A stretch of DNA of 64,000 nt from a virus. A program made the position numbers and the translations under genes. The stretch spans positions 64,001 to 128,000 of the IMG/VR virus record IMGVR_UViG_3300042197_004918; one strand, given 5' to 3'. The notes beneath the pieces were generated by a model, which was not told the origin of the DNA, searched no databases, and saw only the letters and a list, made by a program, of their open reading frames with translations. Positions 3,325-64,000 of this stretch are shown here, piece by piece. How positions within the stretch are numbered: position 1 is the stretch's first letter; the number at the start of each line of letters is the position of its first letter.

Positions 3325-5856
3325 ATGTATCAAAATATTTTCGTAGACAAGAAGACAGAAACCATTTTCATATGGGATGACCAAGCGGGCTTAGTGAAAG
3401 TCCCGATTTCTGACGCAACCTATGCTTACAGAAAGCGTGACGGTGGCCGATACAAATCCTTATATGGTGATGAACTTGAACGGATACGAGACTTTTCTCC
3501 CCGCGACCCGTTGCTGTTTGAATCTGACGTCCCGTTGACCACTAGGGTATTGATAGACGCTTATGAGGACTCTGACGAACCCTCCACTGGCCATGTCGTG
3601 CTGTTCCTCGACATAGAAATCGACATTACAAACGGTTTCTCCACTCCGCAGGACGCAGAAAACGAAATCACTGCGATTGCTTTATACGACGACATTACTA
3701 AGAAGTATACCGCGTTAATTCTCGATAAGAAAGGTGACTTGCCTGACGAATCGAATCAATCGGATGCAACTGTATTATCATTCAACTCCGAAGAATCTCT
3801 GCTTTCGTGTTTCTTGAACAAGGTTGAAGAAACTCGCCCAACCATTATTACGGGGTGGAACGTGGCCGAGTTCGATATGCCCTACCTCATTAACAGGATA
3901 ACAAAGGTGCTCGGAAGAAATCAGTCTTCCCGTATGTCACCTATCAACGTCTCATACATCAGCAAGGCTTTTGGAGACGTGGTTGTGGCTGGAGTTTCGA
4001 TTCTTGACTACATGGTTTTGTATAAGAAGTTCATTGGCCGAAACGAACCAAGTTATGCATTGGGAGCGATAGCAAAACGTGTAGTCCAGATGGATAAGTT
4101 GGCCTACGACGGAAACCTGCAGGATTTATTTAGGTCTGACATCAAGAAATACATCGAATACAACTTGAACGACGTCAAGATTGTGGTCGCTATAGACCAG
4201 AAATTAAAGTTCATTGATTTGGCGAGGAACATTTGCCACACGGGCCACGTTCCATACGAATACTTCGGTATGTCAAGCCGATATATCGAAGGAGCGATGT
4301 TGATATACCTTCGCAGGATGGGGCTTGTGGCTCCAAATAAATCGTTGGAAGGTCAAGCAGAGTTTGCTGCAAGGACTGAGGGCGACGAAGATGGGTTTGA
4401 AGGAGCATTCGTTAAAGACCCGGTTCCGGGAAGATATGATTGGGTGTATGACTTGGATTTAACCTCCATGTATCCCAACATTATGATAAGTCTAAACATC
4501 AGCCCGGAGACGGTCATTTCAAAGGTAGAAGGGTGGAACGTAGAGAAATATCTTAAAAACGAATATACGTCAGTCAAGATGTCGGGAACCGAATATCCAA
4601 TTGACGATTTCAAGAAGATGATGGAAGAGAAGAAGTTTTCTATCGCTTCAAATGGTGTAATTTACAGAAACGACAAACCGGGACTGATTCCTTCTATTTT
4701 GATAAAGTGGTTCGATGAAAGAAAAGCGTTGCGTAAGAAAGCCAAGGAATTCGCTGAGGCGGGAGACACGGAACAGTATGAATTCTATAATGGTCGTCAA
4801 GGCGTCCAAAAGATTCTACTCAACAGCGCATATGGTGTCTTGGGATTGGAAGTATTCCGATTTTACAACAAAGACAACGCCGAGGCCGTCACTCTAACGG
4901 GCCAGGATATCATCAAGACCACCAACAAAGCCATCAACCTCTATTACAAGAATGTCCTCCAGAAAGATGGAGATTATGTTGTATATGTAGACACCGATTC
5001 GGCCTTCGCAAGTGCCGTTCCTATCATCGAAAAGACGATGCCCGAAGTAGATTTGAAAGATGATAAACAGATGACGGTCGCAATATTGAAAGTTGCCGGT
5101 GACGTCCAACTGTTCGTCAATAAGTTTTACGATGTCATGGCTAAGAAGTTCTTTAACATCGAAAAACACCGATTTGATATTAAACAGGAAGTAATATCGA
5201 AGTCTAGTTTCTGGCTTGCCAAGAAACGGTATTGCCAACTTATCATAAACAAAGCCGGTTTACCTGTGGATGAACTTGAAATTAAGGGGATTGACGTCGT
5301 AAGAACCGGCTTCCCCGCGATTTTCAGAAAGTTTATGAAAGAGTTCATCGTTGATATTTTGAAGAAAGTTGACCAACGGAAGATAGACGATGATATTGTA
5401 AAGTTTCTGGAAGACATAAACACATTGTCGGTTGTGGAACTTGCTAAGAACACATCCGTAAAGTTTATCAGTTTGGATAAAACCAAGAATTACAATCCGA
5501 AGGAGAGGAAGCCCTTTCAGACCATGAAGGGCACGCCCGCACAAGTCAAGGCTGCCTTGATGTATAATGACTTACTTGAAAAGTGGGAATTGACCAAACA
5601 CGTCCAACCAATCTTTAACGGGCAGAAGATTAAGTGGGTGTATATCCGTGATAATGAGTATGGTATTGATGCTCTTGCTATGAAAGCGGATGGGAATGAC
5701 CCGAAGGAAATGATTGAGTTTATCGCTAAGTATATTGACCGAAAAGCGATGTATGACCAAGAGTTGAAAAGCAAGTTGGGTGACTTCTATTCAATTTTGA
5801 AGTGGGATTATCCAAGTCTGGAGAGTCGAAAAGCAGAGGAGTTCTTTTCTTTTTAA
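3325..5856 (+). CDS. family B DNA polymerase (T4 gp43-like)
   Basis: ExoI DIE, ExoII GWN..FD, YNLND; polymerase motifs DLTSMYP, K..LNSAYG, YVDTDS, KKRY. Confidence 0.97.
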   Translation: MYQNIFVDKKTETIFIWDDQAGLVKVPISDATYAYRKRDGGRYKSLYGDELERIRDFSPRDPLLFESDVPLTTRVLIDAYEDSDEPSTGHVVLFLDIEIDITNGFSTPQDAENEITAIALYDDITKKYTALILDKKGDLPDESNQSDATVLSFNSEESLLSCFLNKVEETRPTIITGWNVAEFDMPYLINRITKVLGRNQSSRMSPINVSYISKAFGDVVVAGVSILDYMVLYKKFIGRNEPSYALGAIAKRVVQMDKLAYDGNLQDLFRSDIKKYIEYNLNDVKIVVAIDQKLKFIDLARNICHTGHVPYEYFGMSSRYIEGAMLIYLRRMGLVAPNKSLEGQAEFAARTEGDEDGFEGAFVKDPVPGRYDWVYDLDLTSMYPNIMISLNISPETVISKVEGWNVEKYLKNEYTSVKMSGTEYPIDDFKKMMEEKKFSIASNGVIYRNDKPGLIPSILIKWFDERKALRKKAKEFAEAGDTEQYEFYNGRQGVQKILLNSAYGVLGLEVFRFYNKDNAEAVTLTGQDIIKTTNKAINLYYKNVLQKDGDYVVYVDTDSAFASAVPIIEKTMPEVDLKDDKQMTVAILKVAGDVQLFVNKFYDVMAKKFFNIEKHRFDIKQEVISKSSFWLAKKRYCQLIINKAGLPVDELEIKGIDVVRTGFPAIFRKFMKEFIVDILKKVDQRKIDDDIVKFLEDINTLSVVELAKNTSVKFISLDKTKNYNPKERKPFQTMKGTPAQVKAALMYNDLLEKWELTKHVQPIFNGQKIKWVYIRDNEYGIDALAMKADGNDPKEMIEFIAKYIDRKAMYDQELKSKLGDFYSILKWDYPSLESRKAEEFFSF

Positions 5857-29088: not shown

Positions 29089-29733
29089 CTATATGATTTC
29101 GTCAATCAATCCCAATTTGAGACACTCCTCGGGGGACAAACAGAGGTCGTGCTTGAGGAGTTCGTTCAACTCTTTTTCTTTGAATTTGGTATGTTTGAGG
29201 TAGATTTTTTTAATCATCGACATAACCAACTCCAAATTCTTCATTTCGTCTTCAAATTGTGCAAAATTTCCCCACATAGCGCTCGAACACTGATGGATAA
29301 GCATATTAGCGTTTTTACGCATATATCTGCGACGGCCAACGACACTCAAAAGTGTTGCAGCAGAGGCGGCAATGCCCTCTACATAAGTATCCACTGGAAT
29401 TTTGCTTGAGAGAATCCTATCCACAGCGGTAAAACCGCTATAAATCTCTCCGCCTTCACTCGAAATATACAATTCTATCGGAGGAACGACCGGTATATTG
29501 TATTGAATTTGAACAAGCCTTAATTGTTTCTCAACTTCCACCATCTGTCGGTTTAAGTTGTAAATACTTTCTCGGGTAACATCGCTATAGAAAAACAATT
29601 GATTGGTCTGACTAGAAAAATTCCCCAAATCTCTTTGGGGTTTTGATTCGTCACCTTCATCAGCTGAGATTGATAGGGAATACCGTGGGGTTCTTTGAGG
29701 TGATTTCATAGTAATAGGAACATAACCTTTCAT
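29089..29733 (-). CDS. ClpP-like serine protease subunit
   Basis: LYISSEGG, GIAASAATLL (Ser), MLIHQ (His), HD..LSPEEC.KLGLIDEI. Confidence 0.9.
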   Translation of the reverse strand: MKGYVPITMKSPQRTPRYSLSISADEGDESKPQRDLGNFSSQTNQLFFYSDVTRESIYNLNRQMVEVEKQLRLVQIQYNIPVVPPIELYISSEGGEIYSGFTAVDRILSSKIPVDTYVEGIAASAATLLSVVGRRRYMRKNANMLIHQCSSAMWGNFAQFEDEMKNLELVMSMIKKIYLKHTKFKEKELNELLKHDLCLSPEECLKLGLIDEII

Positions 29734-55654: not shown

Positions 55655-58333
55655 ATGGCAAACGTAAAAATCTCCAATTTATCCGCCACCTGGACATCCT
55701 CAGCTGAGCTGACGGCTATTAAGATGGACGTGACCGACACGGCTTCGTCAGGTTCAAGCAAACTCATGGACCTACAGTTAGGTTCGGTGAGCAAGTTTTC
55801 CGTCAGAAAAGACAGCGTAGTTACTGCTACATCATTTGTCGGTGGTCATACCGGGTCATTAGTAGGAACCTCCAGTTTTGCGGTAAGTTCAAGCACCGCT
55901 CAGTATAGTTCGACTGCGAGCTATGCTTCATCGGGCATCAGTGCGAGTTTTGCACAACAAAGCAATCAATCAGTGACGTCAAGCCACTCTGTAAGTGGTC
56001 TTAGCTCAAGTTATTCTTCATATAGTGGTCAGAGTAATACTTCGTTGAGTTCAAGTCAATCCAACTGGTCAAACACCGCAAGTTATGCTCTGAATGCGGG
56101 CAGCAGCGCAGGAACAACTTTGAACAGCGGTAGCTCCTATAATATCACAGCATCTTGGTCAGTTTCATCGAGTTATGCGTTAAATTCTTCGGTAGGAACT
56201 ACACTTGAAAGCGGAAGTTCTTACAATATAACCTCGTCGAGATCGATTTCTGCAAGCTTCGCTCACTCCGCTAGTTCGGCTATGACAGCAAGTTTTGCTT
56301 TAAGTGCAATTGCATCTCTTTCTTCGGGGAGTTCTTACAATATAACTGCCAGCCGTGCGGTCACTGCGAGTTATGTTCTGTCTTCCAGTTATGCTATCAC
56401 AGCAAGCTTCGCTGAACGGTATGCACCATACTGGCCTTCAAATGTAGAAATTTCTGGTGCCGGCCTAACTCCATCACTTAACAATGTGGTGAATTATGTG
56501 GCAACAAGTGGGTCATTTAGTTTATTCGCGAGTGCTCTAGGGAACACCCCTCAGTATTTTAAATGGTATATCAACTCCTCTTCATTATTACAACAGGGAA
56601 CAGCGAGTGCATACAATGTCACTTCTTCTATGAAGAATCCCAACAGCGGCATTTATACGTGCCAGGTGACCAACAGTTATGGCTCAGCGACTTCACAAAA
56701 CTTTCAAGTTCAAGTCCTCGATCCTGTGGAGTTAGTGTCAGAAACTGCTCCAACTCCAACTCCCTCGGTCAACTCAATGGTCTATTTCATCGTGAGTGCG
56801 ACTGGAGACCTTATCCGTTACAGGTGGAAGAAACGTGGAACAACGCCGGCTTTAGACACCTATGTTGTAGACGGTGTGCCTAGTATTCTTAATGAGGGTT
56901 ATGCATCTTCAACGTTAACCATCCAAGCCATAAGTCCAGAATCCGAGGGGTCTTATTTCTGTGAAATATCAAACAGCGTCAGTAACACATCTTCCTCAAA
57001 TATGTTGATTTATGTTACAGCACCTACAATCGTGACACAACCGGAAGATTTGGATACATTTGGAATGGCCACGGTATTGGCAACCGGCTCGGCCATCAGT
57101 TATTCGTGGCAATATAATGGCATTGATATAGTCGAACAGACCGCAGCGACTTTGAATTTATCCACTGCTGTCAACGCTAATTATTTTACTCAGCCGATGA
57201 TGGATCAATTATACTCCTTACGGTGTAAGGTCTATAACGGAGTCGGATACAACCTTAGCGATTCTATTCAAGTCAAACCGTTTAAGAAGGCCGGTGTCGC
57301 ACTATCAGGTCACGCTGGGTCTGCCACGAGAACCGATCACTTTGTCGTCGCAATAGATGCTGCCTCTCAAATCATAGCCCCAGTGGGAACAACGTATGCA
57401 GTCGTTAAAAACAACGTTAACGTGGGTTCCGATGTCACTGCTTTGGGAGAGTCTACGCCAAAACTTACTCTCCATAACGTCCAATCGTCGGACGCGGGAA
57501 CATATGCTGTAAGTGCCAGTTTCAATGGACTTAGTGTTACAAGTGACGCGATATCTCTGACCATTGCCGAGAATGCTAGTTATCATAACGCGTTTCCTTT
57601 GATCAGGTATGTTTTTGACGATGAAACTCATACATTAGTCGCGGACTATGGAATGTCGCTTGGAACCACATATAACGGCCCCAACGGCACACCTCCAGGA
57701 ACTTATTACATAGGTCGCGCCATCCGCCAGTCTCAGAACTTCACTGCATACGACCAGGCCGATTTGAATGGAAGTGTTTCATGTCCCGATCACGCGCCGT
57801 TTCCGACCACGTTGGGTTTTCCAACTTCCACGGTCACAATTACTGGCCGAAACATATCCGGCTCGTCTTCCTCGGGTTCTACAAGCATATTTTACCAATA
57901 CGCTTACTCATACACGTTCGCCTCTTGCCCAACCAACTCTGTTAGCACTCCTAATCCGTGGCCGTGCGTCCACCCTGACACGTTGGCAGACACCTGCTCG
58001 GGTGGACAAACAGCCACGTCGGCTGCCAATCTAATGACCGTCACCGTAATGAGTTTTGGTAATCTTGGAATTACCGTCCATCCGACTGGTAGCCAGTCAA
58101 AAGCCACCGGAAGCGCCGTGGTGCTTAGAACCGTCGGAACTGCCGGTGGCGCAGACCTACACTACAGATGGTATAGGAACGGTGTAAGAATCCCTGACTC
58201 TGATTCAAGCCTCTATTCTATATCCAGCGTTGCACTGAGCGACTCGGGCTCTTATTATTGTATTGTCGGTGCTAAATCCACACTGTCTTATAGAACGATG
58301 CAGTCGTCTGCATCTATACTTAACGTGGTGTAA
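55655..58333 (+). CDS. Ig-like-domain virion decoration/fibre protein
   Basis: KISNL start; xASYA repeats; about 5 I-set-like units (W..N...SG.Y.C.V.N); TATTTATA at 55634. Confidence 0.8.
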   Translation: MANVKISNLSATWTSSAELTAIKMDVTDTASSGSSKLMDLQLGSVSKFSVRKDSVVTATSFVGGHTGSLVGTSSFAVSSSTAQYSSTASYASSGISASFAQQSNQSVTSSHSVSGLSSSYSSYSGQSNTSLSSSQSNWSNTASYALNAGSSAGTTLNSGSSYNITASWSVSSSYALNSSVGTTLESGSSYNITSSRSISASFAHSASSAMTASFALSAIASLSSGSSYNITASRAVTASYVLSSSYAITASFAERYAPYWPSNVEISGAGLTPSLNNVVNYVATSGSFSLFASALGNTPQYFKWYINSSSLLQQGTASAYNVTSSMKNPNSGIYTCQVTNSYGSATSQNFQVQVLDPVELVSETAPTPTPSVNSMVYFIVSATGDLIRYRWKKRGTTPALDTYVVDGVPSILNEGYASSTLTIQAISPESEGSYFCEISNSVSNTSSSNMLIYVTAPTIVTQPEDLDTFGMATVLATGSAISYSWQYNGIDIVEQTAATLNLSTAVNANYFTQPMMDQLYSLRCKVYNGVGYNLSDSIQVKPFKKAGVALSGHAGSATRTDHFVVAIDAASQIIAPVGTTYAVVKNNVNVGSDVTALGESTPKLTLHNVQSSDAGTYAVSASFNGLSVTSDAISLTIAENASYHNAFPLIRYVFDDETHTLVADYGMSLGTTYNGPNGTPPGTYYIGRAIRQSQNFTAYDQADLNGSVSCPDHAPFPTTLGFPTSTVTITGRNISGSSSSGSTSIFYQYAYSYTFASCPTNSVSTPNPWPCVHPDTLADTCSGGQTATSAANLMTVTVMSFGNLGITVHPTGSQSKATGSAVVLRTVGTAGGADLHYRWYRNGVRIPDSDSSLYSISSVALSDSGSYYCIVGAKSTLSYRTMQSSASILNVV

Positions 58334-58541: not shown

Positions 58542-59051
58542 ATGGACGAAGATGTGAGAGAATACGGTTGTTTAATGGCGTATATCGAACCGGCTTCTGC
58601 GAATAAAGTGGTGGAGCTTGGAAAAAAGATTATACCTCAATCAATTCTCTACGAGGTTCCTGGTGAAGAATATGGTAGAGAGACAGAACCTCACGTCACC
58701 ATAAAGTATGGTTTCACCCGAGATTTGACCGACGAAGAAGTAAAGAAAATCATCGGAAAAACAAAATCATTCTCCGTAGTCGCTGAAGGCCTAAGCACGT
58801 TTGATGGTAAAGAATTTCAAGTTGTAAAATTTGATATTCGCAGGGATGGGGTATTGTTATCCATGCGTAAGCTATGTGACGCATTTCCAAATAAAGACTC
58901 GCACCCCGACTTCCATCCTCACATGACATTGGCATACACAAAGCTAAAGTCATTCCCACACAAAAAGACCGGTCTATCTCTATCCTTTCGAGTAAACAAA
59001 TTTGTCTACTCTCCTATAACTGGAAAAAAGAGAGACTATAACCTATCTTAA
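58542..59051 (+). CDS. 2H phosphoesterase, Acb1/T4 gp57B-like
   Basis: two HxT motifs: EPHVTIKYG and FHPHMTLAY. Confidence 0.8.
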   Translation: MDEDVREYGCLMAYIEPASANKVVELGKKIIPQSILYEVPGEEYGRETEPHVTIKYGFTRDLTDEEVKKIIGKTKSFSVVAEGLSTFDGKEFQVVKFDIRRDGVLLSMRKLCDAFPNKDSHPDFHPHMTLAYTKLKSFPHKKTGLSLSFRVNKFVYSPITGKKRDYNLS

Positions 59052-61462: not shown

Positions 61463-61535
61463 CCGTTCGTAGGATAATGGCTATTCCGCCTGCTTTGGGA
61501 GCAGGATATTGTGAGTTCGAGTCTCACCGAGCGGA
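61463..61535 (+). tRNA. tRNA-Pro(TGG), CCA not encoded
   Basis: CCTGC-TTTGGGA-GCAGG. Confidence 0.9.
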
Positions 61536-61604
61536 CAGCGTAGCGCCGGGTTGGGTATTGCTCCAACGGTAATGTGTTAGTGTTAACGCCCGGCGGTCAC
61601 GTAT

Positions 61605-62750: not shown

Positions 62751-62827
62751 GGTCACGTAGCCCAACGGCAGGAGGCGGGAGTCTTAGAAGCTCTACAGTG
62801 GGGGTTCAAATCCCTCCGTGACCACCA
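62751..62827 (+). tRNA. tRNA-Leu(TAG), short variable loop
   Basis: GGAGT-CTTAGAA-GCTCT; CCA. Confidence 0.88.
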
Positions 62828-63248
62828 TTTTGTTTTTTCTTCTCCAGTTTGGTGTTATGGAATGGCAATTAGGACATAGAAGTTTTAAGTTTTGGTTTTG
62901 ATTATTTTTCTTGTTTCCATCCACATGATGAACCTCAAGCGTTATTGGTTCTCCCAACCAATCCGCAGTCGAGCATCGTTCGCATTTTAATCCTCTCTCT
63001 TTAATGAGACAGTTTCTACGAGCGGTTGCGGAAGAATAATCTTCTAAAGATTTCAAAGATTTACCCTTATTCCACAGTTGATGTGAAAAATGACTTATAT
63101 CAAGATTCAATCGTTCAATATGAAGTTTAACGGACCCCTGAGTCCCGCCGGCTTGAACTAATCCAAGATTTTTCAAAACTTGACTATAAGCACGACTTTT
63201 GGAAACAGCAACTTTTAATTCTTCGTCTGAGTATGTTCTTTTTTTCAT
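62793..63248 (-). CDS. free-standing HNH homing endonuclease in the tRNA array
   Basis: CERC..LEVHHVDGNKKNN...NL.LLCPNCHS.T; N-terminal DNA-binding region. Confidence 0.9.
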   Translation of the reverse strand: MKKRTYSDEELKVAVSKSRAYSQVLKNLGLVQAGGTQGSVKLHIERLNLDISHFSHQLWNKGKSLKSLEDYSSATARRNCLIKERGLKCERCSTADWLGEPITLEVHHVDGNKKNNQNQNLKLLCPNCHSITPNWRRKNKMVVTEGFEPPL

Positions 63249-63304
63249 ATCAATAAATATGAAACGGTAGACGAATAACACAATATTTATGTGTCAACCA
63301 TTTT

Positions 63305-63548
63305 GAAAACGTGAGCGTGATAAAACGCAATGGGAACTAGACCACAACGAACCGGGAAGAAATGAAAGGTCGATAAACTATAGTTCTCATGTCGATTGAG
63401 GCGGTGCGATAATCCGATGGCGAGCGGACGCTCGTTGTGATTGGAAACAATCATACTATGGGGAACTAAGCGGTGATATATCACAAGGCACCCATAGCGC
63501 AGGGCCAGTCTTAGACACATACGGGTCCGAACCCCGTCGTTTTCACCA
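63305..63548 (+). ncRNA. 244-nt RNA closed by a tRNA acceptor stem, T-arm and CCA
   Basis: GAAAACG/CGTTTTC-ACCA; ACGGG-TCCGAAC-CCCGT; several internal hairpins. Confidence 0.75.
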
Positions 63549-63550
63549 TT

Positions 63551-63783
63551 TTGAAGTAGTAGGCTTAGAAGCAGCCATCTTTAATCAGCGAATCGAAACG
63601 CTGGCGACGACGCCTCCGTGCAACACCGACATTACGATTGGATGTTGTGAACGAGGTGATACATAAGAAGATATAGAGAGATAATAGTCTTGTGTATTGC
63701 CGTCCAGTATCTCCGCAGAAAGTAAACGGATACTCCGTAACTGGTAAGGTCCAATTATTCCTTGGCGTAAAAGCAGACTTCAA
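63551..63783 (+). ncRNA. 23S rRNA H43-H44 (uL11-binding/GTPase-associated centre) mimic RNA, copy 1
   Basis: GTAGGCTTAGAAGCAGCCATCTTTAA...GCGTAAAAGC inside the TTGAAGT/ACTTCAA stem. Confidence 0.75.
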
Positions 63784-63786
63784 TAT

Positions 63787-63861
63787 CCATCCGTCGCCTA
63801 ACTTGGTATGGCATCTCATTTGGGGTGAGAAATAATCTCGGTTCAAATCCGGGCGGGTGGA
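63787..63861 (+). tRNA. tRNA-Pro(TGG), second copy, CC only
   Basis: TCTCA-TTTGGGG-TGAGA; CTCGG-TTCAAAT-CCGGG. Confidence 0.88.
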
Positions 63862-63873
63862 CCTGATTAGAAG

Positions 63874-64000
63874 AAAGTAGGCTTAGAAGCAGCCATCTTT
63901 TAAAAAGTGACGAGTGGAAAAAGTATCTGTTGCAACAGAGAAATAAGCGTAACGGGTTTGTCAAGTCCCCGACGTATAACCACAGGGAATATAAATCCAA
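63874..64000 (+). ncRNA. 23S rRNA H43 mimic RNA, copy 2 (probably truncated by the window end)
   Basis: 25-nt exact repeat AGTAGGCTTAGAAGCAGCCATCTTT at 63876-63900. Confidence 0.65.

Follow-up and report, generated by a model that had tools for sequence, protein, structure and literature searches.

The GTPase-associated centre (GAC) of bacterial 23S rRNA is among the most conserved functional sites of the ribosome and is the target of the thiopeptides. A likeness of this site, closed by a stem of its own, lies among the tRNA genes at the end of the window considered here, the whole 64,000-nt stretch comprising bases 64001-128000 of the 173,817-bp IMG/VR virus record IMGVR_UViG_3300042197_004918, from a large uncultured freshwater phage. 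Two related elements are present, copy 1 and copy 2, and the second is the main subject. Copy 2 runs past the end of the window, and its continuation was read in locus L002 (G000:C1:126380-129397; window position = L002 position + 62379). A sequence-only reading of the window, made earlier by a model, had taken the element to be rRNA-like, and that view is supported.

Several described RNAs resemble copy 2 in part. Species 1 and 2 of the phage T4 tRNA cluster are small stable RNAs of unknown function; like copy 2 they are non-tRNA RNAs among phage tRNA genes, presumably released by tRNA-processing enzymes, but no rRNA mimicry is described for them and the comparison is by description only. GOLLD and ROOL are big structured RNAs that are often phage-encoded near tRNA genes; their architecture is different, and Rfam gives no match to either one across the window, L002, and 14 carrier loci. 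Some mRNA leaders mimic the rRNA binding sites of ribosomal proteins, among them the L10(L12)4 leader and, in the L11-L1 operon, the uL1 site (reviews: PMC10931766, and Meyer 2018 as cited there). They share with copy 2 the imitation of an rRNA protein-binding site outside the ribosome. However, these leaders are cis-regulatory, cellular, and usually loose structural mimics, whereas copy 2 is near-exact, viral, and borne in a tRNA array with no ribosomal protein gene downstream. Nor does an autoregulatory leader (e.g. L10_leader) fit, with no Rfam leader match and no uL11, uL10, or bL12 gene found in the record; a search of the phage record for Ribosomal_L11, L12, and L10 domains found none.

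The closest described structure is the bacterial 23S GAC itself (Escherichia coli 1051-1108, whose numbering is used throughout), a 58-60-nt fragment of which serves in L11 and thiostrepton studies. Copy 2 has a helix 43 (H43) identical to it over 18 nt, the same helices, and the same tertiary contacts. It differs in being a free-standing phage gene between tRNA genes with its own arbitrary closing stem, in carrying a domain of ~198 nt plus UUUG between positions 1090 and 1091, and in having A1101 and C1095. A genuine 23S gene or gene fragment is not indicated, as there is no continuity with further rRNA, no large-subunit (LSU) rRNA match, and the flanks are tRNA genes. Group I or group II introns and rRNA intervening sequences do not fit either: no intron family matches L002 at E <= 10, and inserts in related elements can be as short as ~25-40 nt.

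Anatomy of copy 2

Copy 2 is a complete non-coding RNA gene of ~268 nt (G000:C1:127865-128132). By base identity and predicted pairing, its two ends are shown to make up together a self-closed replica of the uL11-binding GAC, with a stem like the top of helix 42 (H42), H43, and helix 44 (H44). The 5′ strand of the closing stem, GAUUAGAAG (63865-63873, + strand), corresponds to E. coli 1047-1055, at the top of H42, and is followed by the H43-like hairpin (63874-63900, +; equivalent to 1056-1082), which contains the lower stem AAG/CUU, U1060, A1061, GGCUUAGAAGCAGCC with A1067, and AUCUUU. The segment UAAAAAGU (63901-63908, +; equivalent to 1083-1090) includes the junction triloop, A1087, A1088, and U1090, and aligns to UAAAGAGU of the wider family described below. 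The insert, a lineage-specific domain set into the 5′ strand of H44 between U1090 and G1091, begins at 63909, with the first 92 of its ~198 nt reaching the end of the window (63909-64000, +) and the whole occupying L002 1530-1727, to window-equivalent position 64106. Beyond it are a UUUG linker (L002 1728-1731), the H44-like GCGUCAUAGC (DNA GCGTCATAGC; L002 1732-1741, window-equivalent 64111-64120), AUAC (L002 1742-1745), and the 3′ closing strand CUUCUAAUC (DNA TTCTAATC; L002 1745-1753, window-equivalent 64124-64132). L002 thus reads ACAGTC-TTTG-GCGTCATAGC-ATAC-TTCTAATC-TTTAT past the window end, and then enters a tRNA-Trp-like gene.

The sequence-only reading expected the H44 half to lie beyond the window, and that is where it is: UUUG-GCGUCAUAGC-AUAC and CUUCUAAUC occur 107-132 nt past base 64000. 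They provide an H44-like hairpin with a hexaloop closed by two G-C pairs, equivalent to G1091-C1100 and C1092-G1099 (GC-GUCAUA-GC, compared with GC-GUAAUA-GC in E. coli, the deviation being C1095) and a 9-bp stem complementary to exactly 63865-63873, in which GAUUAGAAG pairs with CUUCUAAUC at 9/9 positions. The stem lies where that reading had looked for one, its forecast having been a complement to about 63865-63875. A degenerate local duplication without a downstream H44-like loop or closing stem, the outcome the same reading had set against its own proposal, is not what is found, since both are present. Two of its details do not stand. The AAAG/CTTT that it took for an extension of H43 is the ordinary lower H43 stem (1057-1059 with 1079-1081, and possibly 1056:1082), which covaries across the family, and GCGTAACGG near 63947, offered as a weak candidate for the H44 half, is displaced by the real one, GCGTCATAGC at L002 1732-1741.

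With the insert and linker removed, 39 of the 48 core positions (1057-1104) are the same as in E. coli. Of the nine differences, six come from three double changes that each preserve a pair (U1058-A1080 to A-U, G1087-C1102 to A-U, and A1090-U1101 to U-A), and the other three are A1061, G1089, and C1095. The H43 loop UUAGAAGCA, including A1067, is present, and the tertiary-contact set (U1060, A1088, G1071, C1072, and the pair 1082:1086) is complete. Copy 2 also has the hallmarks of the family, namely an insert-closing pair (G1530-C1727 in L002 coordinates), UUUG, A1101, and AUAC; its insert starts with GAC, which pairs with GUC at the far end, and continues with GAGUGGAA. The minimum-energy fold from RNAfold contains the 9-bp closing stem and both parts of H43. 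In the record the 3′-half pattern TKGGCGTNNNAGCANAC has exactly two matches, one following each of the H43 copies, and there is no match on the other strand or with a reversed control.

Copy 2 is also delimited closely by tRNA genes. It starts 1 nt from the end of a tRNA-Pro(tgg) gene (63787-63863, +; ARAGORN, and 46.1 bits with the Rfam tRNA model) and ends 5 nt before the tRNA-Trp-like gene (L002 1759-1829), so the tRNA-like units that had been read as flanking it are present on both sides.

The repeat by which the element was noticed holds as described, with the 25-mer AGTAGGCTTAGAAGCAGCCATCTTT exact at 63558-63582 and 63876-63900 and the tRNA-Pro(tgg) gene between the two. Its central 18-mer, GGCTTAGAAGCAGCCATC, has two exact matches in the window, where 100 shuffles lead one to expect 0.00; both lie on the + strand, and the whole 173,817-bp record also has exactly two. 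It is identical to H43 of E. coli 23S rRNA, as read in L120, where the 23S sequence at the site is ...ATGTTGGCTTAGAAGCAGCCATCATTTAAAGAAAGCGTAATAGCTCACTGG...; a 37-nt BLAST query matched an annotated '23S ribosomal RNA' gene in 5,426/5,426 complete E. coli genomes.

Copy 1 (63551-63785, +) has the closing stem UUGAAGU/ACUUCAA, the same 25-mer, an insert of ~185 nt, and GCGUAAAAGC-AGAC. It is less canonical than its paralogue: 1057:1081 is a U-U mismatch, UAAAGAGU is missing, and the closing register is off by one. Likeness between the two copies is limited to the 25-mer (100%) and a 20-nt 3′ piece (85%). The sequences after the junction are unrelated, as had been claimed: the inserts (186 and 196 nt compared) align with a score of -5.5, no better than shuffled controls (-6.0 ± 5.0). 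The H43 arms are identical even at positions that vary in the family (AGUA...UUU), and are therefore either of recent common origin or homogenised.

The stretch is represented in freshwater, riverine, and drinking-water metagenomes. A DNA relative of ~97% identity has both copies, and its copy 2 differs at five places, all of them inside the insert; H43, H44, and the closing stem are unchanged, and the tRNA-Pro gene at 63787-63863 is changed at 11/77 positions.

A phage RNA family with variable inserts

Scanning viral contigs with the H43 18-mer gave more than 117 loci, none of which continues as 23S rRNA, and scanning with the 3′-half pattern gave more than 119. Real rRNA cannot match the latter pattern, having UCAC in place of ACAC, and H43 at the loci so found is rRNA-like yet variable (26 exact, 22 with one change, and 21 with two). 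The pooled scans yield at least 126 distinct members of one architecture, nearly all from viral contigs. Each has a private closing stem of 8-10 bp, followed by GG-ANGUN, the H43 18-mer, N′N′N′-UAAAGAGU-N, a variable insert, N′-UUUG, GCGUAAUAGC, ACAC, and the other closing strand. The spacing between H43 and the H44 half is 40-380 nt (median 150) in the 126 members, and the insert proper is about 25-365 nt.

Conservation of the fold was assessed in an alignment of 56 members with dissimilar inserts, to which the GAC pairing was supplied. Pairing cells amount to 93.2%, compared with 68.8% in shuffles (0/500 shuffles reach the observed value), the covariation score is 0.621 as against 0.148 when shuffled and 0.10-0.17 with partners slid, and both sides change in 17/25 pairs. 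The nine closing-stem columns all covary. Selection of the members made no use of the 1082:1086 pair, the helix that closes the insert, or the lower stem of H43. Pair 1058:1080 occurs as GC, UA, AU, and CG; the GAC tertiary pair 1082:1086 is U-A in 55, C-G in 39, and A-U in 17; and the insert-closing pair is Watson-Crick in 119/123 members with four types represented (GC 32, AU 14, and UA 8 in the 56-member alignment). Copy 2 is the sole case in the family of the change from G1087-C1102 to A-U.

U1060 (126/126) and G1071 and C1072 (77/77 each) are invariant, and A1088 is kept in 117/126; in L11-RNA crystal structures these nucleotides build the compact tertiary fold. The loop adenines A1067 and A1095, which are touched by thiostrepton and factors, are present in 68/77 and 72/74 members respectively, and there is family variation at 1067, 1068, 1070, 1096, and 1097.

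Other shared characters are absent from rRNA, including the UUUG linker (112/126) and A1101 (73/74), and the insertion site is common to the members, between 1090 and 1091. The motif GAGU at 1087-1090 is kept even in gammaproteobacterial phages such as Pseudomonas phage pf16, where E. coli 23S rRNA has GAAA. The shared derived characters (A1101, the UUUG linker, and one insertion site) suggest that the family arose once and then spread from phage to phage under selection for the rRNA-like nucleotides; independent captures from host rRNA seem unlikely.

The family is apparently undescribed, being absent from Rfam 15 and the searchable literature. No Rfam 15 family (E <= 10) matches at these elements in the window, L002, and 14 carrier loci, where the matches are limited to tRNAs, tmRNA, one RNase P, and a sub-threshold RNase P-like RNA; full-text literature searches, including motif strings, returned papers on the ribosomal site only and no description of such a phage RNA.

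Carriers are mainly large phages of 77-536 kb, many of them complete, with terminal repeats. Members lie unannotated in cultured phages, including Serratia phage BF, several Erwinia pEa_SNUABM phages, Xanthomonas phage XbC2, and Paenibacillus phage Pd_22F. In Aeromonas phage 4_4572 (L320) a member is situated just upstream of tRNA-Met (record positions 75085-75362), and in Pseudomonas phage pf16 (L321) one occupies the gap between tRNA-Asn and tRNA-Pro (~29403-29655); neither is annotated, and both phages could serve as experimental models. A search of one genome per species for 185,579 prokaryote species gave only 20 loci with the 3′ pattern, 15 of which are family members, against the more than 119 on viral contigs, and the family is thus enriched in viruses. 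The 15 are spread over assemblies of many phyla, probably as prophages or as contigs of phages that were binned there.

Association with tRNA genes is a general property. The loci of 65 of the 79 members examined contain tRNA genes. Of 503 such neighbours, 502 share the strand of the element and one is opposite, and 39 elements are within 60 nt of a tRNA, many at 0-10 nt. Some loci also contain a tmRNA and an RNase P RNA near the element. The tRNA flanks and co-orientation fit release by tRNA-processing enzymes, as the sequence-only reading had it.

That reading also proposed a conserved rRNA-like core with interchangeable inserts, and the family bears this out, with 84 BLAST clusters of inserts among the 126 members. 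The copy 2 insert resembles those of L037, L053, L065, L078, and L110 only in its opening (G-N-C, then GAGUGGAA) and in the closure of its helix. A module, CCCCGUAAnUGGUAAGG, recurs across unrelated clusters in ~30 members (about a quarter of the family), at a fixed distance of ~22 nt before the insert end; copy 1 carries it at 63735-63752, and other examples are L006, L029, L114, and L131. Same-record comparison covered few pairs of inserts: L220 is a second record with two members whose inserts are unrelated, and L022 and L158 are two members of one record with related inserts. Very short inserts of ~25-40 nt are found in L190 and L119, and L013 has none, its plain GAC mimic (~3700-3790, +) reading AAAGUGGCGUA-H43-GCUUAAUCAAC-GCGUAACAGC-GAUCACCUUU.

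Mimicry of the sarcin-ricin loop was rejected as a general reading of the inserts. The openings 'ACGAGUGGA' in copy 2 and 'UCGAGAGGA' in L078 had suggested it, but the C of the opening belongs to the helix that closes the insert and covaries, the bulged-G motif (AGUA-C-GAGA-G-GA) shows no enrichment (5/126 members, compared with 3.2 in shuffles), and copy 2 lacks the hairpin. When viral contigs were scanned with AGAGTGNCGAGTGGAA to widen the subfamily of the copy 2 insert, there were 88 matches, the new ones having no upstream H43 and being attributable to chance. L037, L053, and L065, which are long relatives of the copy 2 insert, have a bulged-G hairpin (AGUAC-NNNN-GGA) at one homologous place ~230-260 nt into the insert, with a tetraloop that varies (GGGA, CAGC, GAAA).

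In L133, L179, and L186 (viral contigs of 223, 533, and 146 kb) the identity with rRNA reaches into H42 (GACAGCCAGGAUGUU ... ACACUGGCCGAG), and these three might also bear the uL10 site; they have no LSU match and so are not 23S genes. Most members, copy 2 included, lack this extension, and the uL10/bL12 stalk site is therefore generally not copied.

Candidate roles of the RNA

On balance we lean towards copy 2 being a GAC-fold RNA that is excised from the array and bound by host uL11, as an off-ribosome imitation of that protein's site. Processing at the 3′ end of tRNA-Pro would set the 5′ end of copy 2, RNase P acting at the 5′ end of the downstream tRNA would set its 3′ end, and the product would be expected to fold like the isolated 58-60-nt GAC RNA, with the variable insert as an add-on that differs between the two paralogues. 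That isolated RNA folds alone and binds the C-terminal domain of L11, the contacts of which are at 1058-1060, 1062-1065, 1075-1083, and 1088, and a U1061A variant stabilises its tertiary fold (PMC1802607). In copy 2 the listed contacts match E. coli, bar the compensated pair 1058:1080, and A1061 is present; judged by the identity of these published contact nucleotides, host uL11 may bind copy 2 through its C-terminal domain. Neither the phage record itself nor any of 46 carrier records (completeness of 90% or more in 24) yielded an L11 gene, and any uL11 partner must therefore be that of the host.

Away from the ribosome the RNA could titrate uL11 or other readers of the site, to the benefit of the phage. 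RelA activation depends on uL11, and one option is that uL11 is withdrawn and uL11-dependent RelA signalling is blunted as a result; another is that the RNA is a bait for an enzyme directed at the GAC. We favour a role through the fold and uL11 over that of a substrate decoy because copy 2 has C1095 and because the loop adenines are kept less strictly than the fold nucleotides.

Expression is hinted at, although not proven, by RNA libraries. Two lake-water metatranscriptomes from different studies contain short contigs of ~90% identity over L002 1530-1723 and 1560-1723, entirely inside the copy 2 insert and apparently from a close relative. The stops at 1530 and 1723 are probably assembly breaks, because they coincide with the start of the core that is common to rRNA and to other family members, and stretches without contig cover (copy 1 and the spacers) are not evidence of absence.

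Several points weigh against a uL11-binding imitation. C1095 of copy 2 stands where A is near-universal, and the RNA may not present the full factor and thiopeptide face. The fold energy of the whole molecule is no better than that of shuffles (z = -0.71), and the minimum-energy fold pairs GUGACG with CGUCAU, destroying H44; L015, the only other member with C1095, does not conserve this pairing and gives no support to its being a switch. There is some circularity in the closing-stem statistics, members having been selected on at least 6/8 closing pairs, and the RNA-library contigs show no ends, strand, or level and could reflect DNA carry-over. Titration of an abundant ribosomal protein would need high RNA levels, and the near-universal presence of an insert at one site suggests that it matters more than a plain decoy needs.

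That last observation sustains the best of the alternatives, a possible but rather unlikely one, in which the GAC-like core, whether or not uL11 is bound to it, would be no more than a compact handle that resists nucleases, much like a tRNA scaffold, and the insert would be the active part (a regulator, aptamer, or decoy that differs from phage to phage and between the two paralogues). The extreme diversity of the inserts fits such a scaffold with cargo, as do the unrelated inserts in the two copies here and in the two of L220, the retention of module CCCCGUAAnUGGUAAGG across insert clusters (copy 1 included), and the GNC-GAGUGGAA opening common to copy 2, L037, L053, L065, and L078. However, the short inserts of L190 and L119 and the absence of one in L013 indicate that the core alone is viable, a stability handle needs neither rRNA-identical loop nucleotides nor the tertiary-contact set, and the A-rich insert of copy 2 has no detectable excess of structure over shuffles.

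A speculative elaboration of the uL11-binding imitation, and an unlikely one, is that the RNA and host uL11 form a free 'stalk-base' particle that traps a reader of the GAC and switches off the stringent response or ribosome-directed immunity. The trapped reader might be a translational GTPase, a defence enzyme directed at the GAC, or RelA on deacylated tRNA, and the two paralogues, having different inserts, would each present the bait to a partner of its own. If this is true, a copied ribosomal functional centre would have given rise to a new class of viral host-takeover RNA.

Arrays of tRNA genes, where the family sits, are thought to counter RNA-targeting defences, which accords with an improbable third account: that the free GAC copy soaks up or misdirects not uL11 but a host toxin or defence effector that modifies or cuts H43/H44, a thiopeptide, a translational GTPase, or RelA. 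A gene for a LigT-like 2H phosphoesterase lies just upstream of the array, and A1067 and A1095 are well kept in the family. Enzymes specific for the site do exist, as the type VI secretion toxin Tre23 ADP-ribosylates 23S H44 at 1095-1098 and blocks the GTPase activity of EF-G (PMC8661411). A mimic of such a substrate should nevertheless hold 1067, 1068, 1070, 1096, and 1097 tightest, which are positions at which members vary, and copy 2 itself has C1095. GTPase recruitment via bL12 is unlikely, given that the lower part of H42, on which the uL10/bL12 stalk depends, is missing from most members, and the literature searched yielded no anti-phage system aimed at the GAC. We know of none.

That the element is an inert remnant, either a degenerate local duplication or scraps of 23S exon around a mobile insertion (an intron or intervening sequence), is very improbable in spite of the HNH endonuclease genes in the array and the identity of the copies at family-variable positions, since both halves are present and the record has exactly two 3′ halves to go with the two 5′ halves, the rRNA similarity ends at a closing stem private to the element, neither LSU rRNA nor a group I or group II intron matches at or near it (E <= 10), hundreds of relatives show compensatory changes, and the core is constant in the 97% relative while neighbouring DNA changes.

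Genes of a widespread family in large phages, with hosts spanning many phyla, make free-standing, fold-preserving copies of the GAC, which would be a new viral route to interfere with translation, stress signalling, or immunity. The family offers a testable handle of one RNA and one well-studied protein partner, for which L11-RNA binding assays exist, and culturable phages of Pseudomonas, Aeromonas, Serratia, Erwinia, and Xanthomonas are among the carriers. The present locus adds a phage that keeps two paralogues with unrelated inserts, the canonical one having pair-preserving double changes.

The surrounding array

Twelve tRNA genes, all on one strand, fill the final 3.3 kb of the window (ARAGORN and Rfam). 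Besides the gene that separates the two copies, there is a further tRNA-Pro(tgg) at 61463-61536 and a third tRNA-Pro at L002 1985-2059. A little upstream of the array is a 169-aa open reading frame (ORF; 58542-59051, +) with a match to the LigT / 2′-5′ RNA ligase 2H phosphoesterase superfamily (E = 7e-10), the product of which may act in RNA repair. An 892-aa protein is encoded at 55655-58333 (+), with many immunoglobulin-like domains (Ig_3, E = 1e-20); it is probably involved in virion decoration or adhesion. An HNH endonuclease ORF of 162 aa (62793-63281, -; Pfam HNH, 22.6 bits) overlaps tRNA-Leu (62751-62827) at its 3′ end, in antisense orientation.

A 244-nt tRNA-like RNA (63305-63548) is located upstream of copy 1, and its 3′ part is covered by contigs from two lake RNA libraries. 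In one run the contig continues past the CCA end into UUGAUUAGAAG, a 5′ closing strand of the copy 2 type, so that in the lake relative copy 2 directly follows the tRNA-like RNA. By this comparison, copy 1 and tRNA-Pro look like an added module in the phage studied here.

An RNase P-like RNA of ~250 nt follows tRNA-Glu at L002 2198-2447 (G000:C1:128577-128826), ~580 nt beyond the end of the window. It matches Rfam RNaseP_arch with 34 bits (E = 2e-7; gathering score 84), and it is covered by RNA-library contigs from three studies, two of which begin at 2198.

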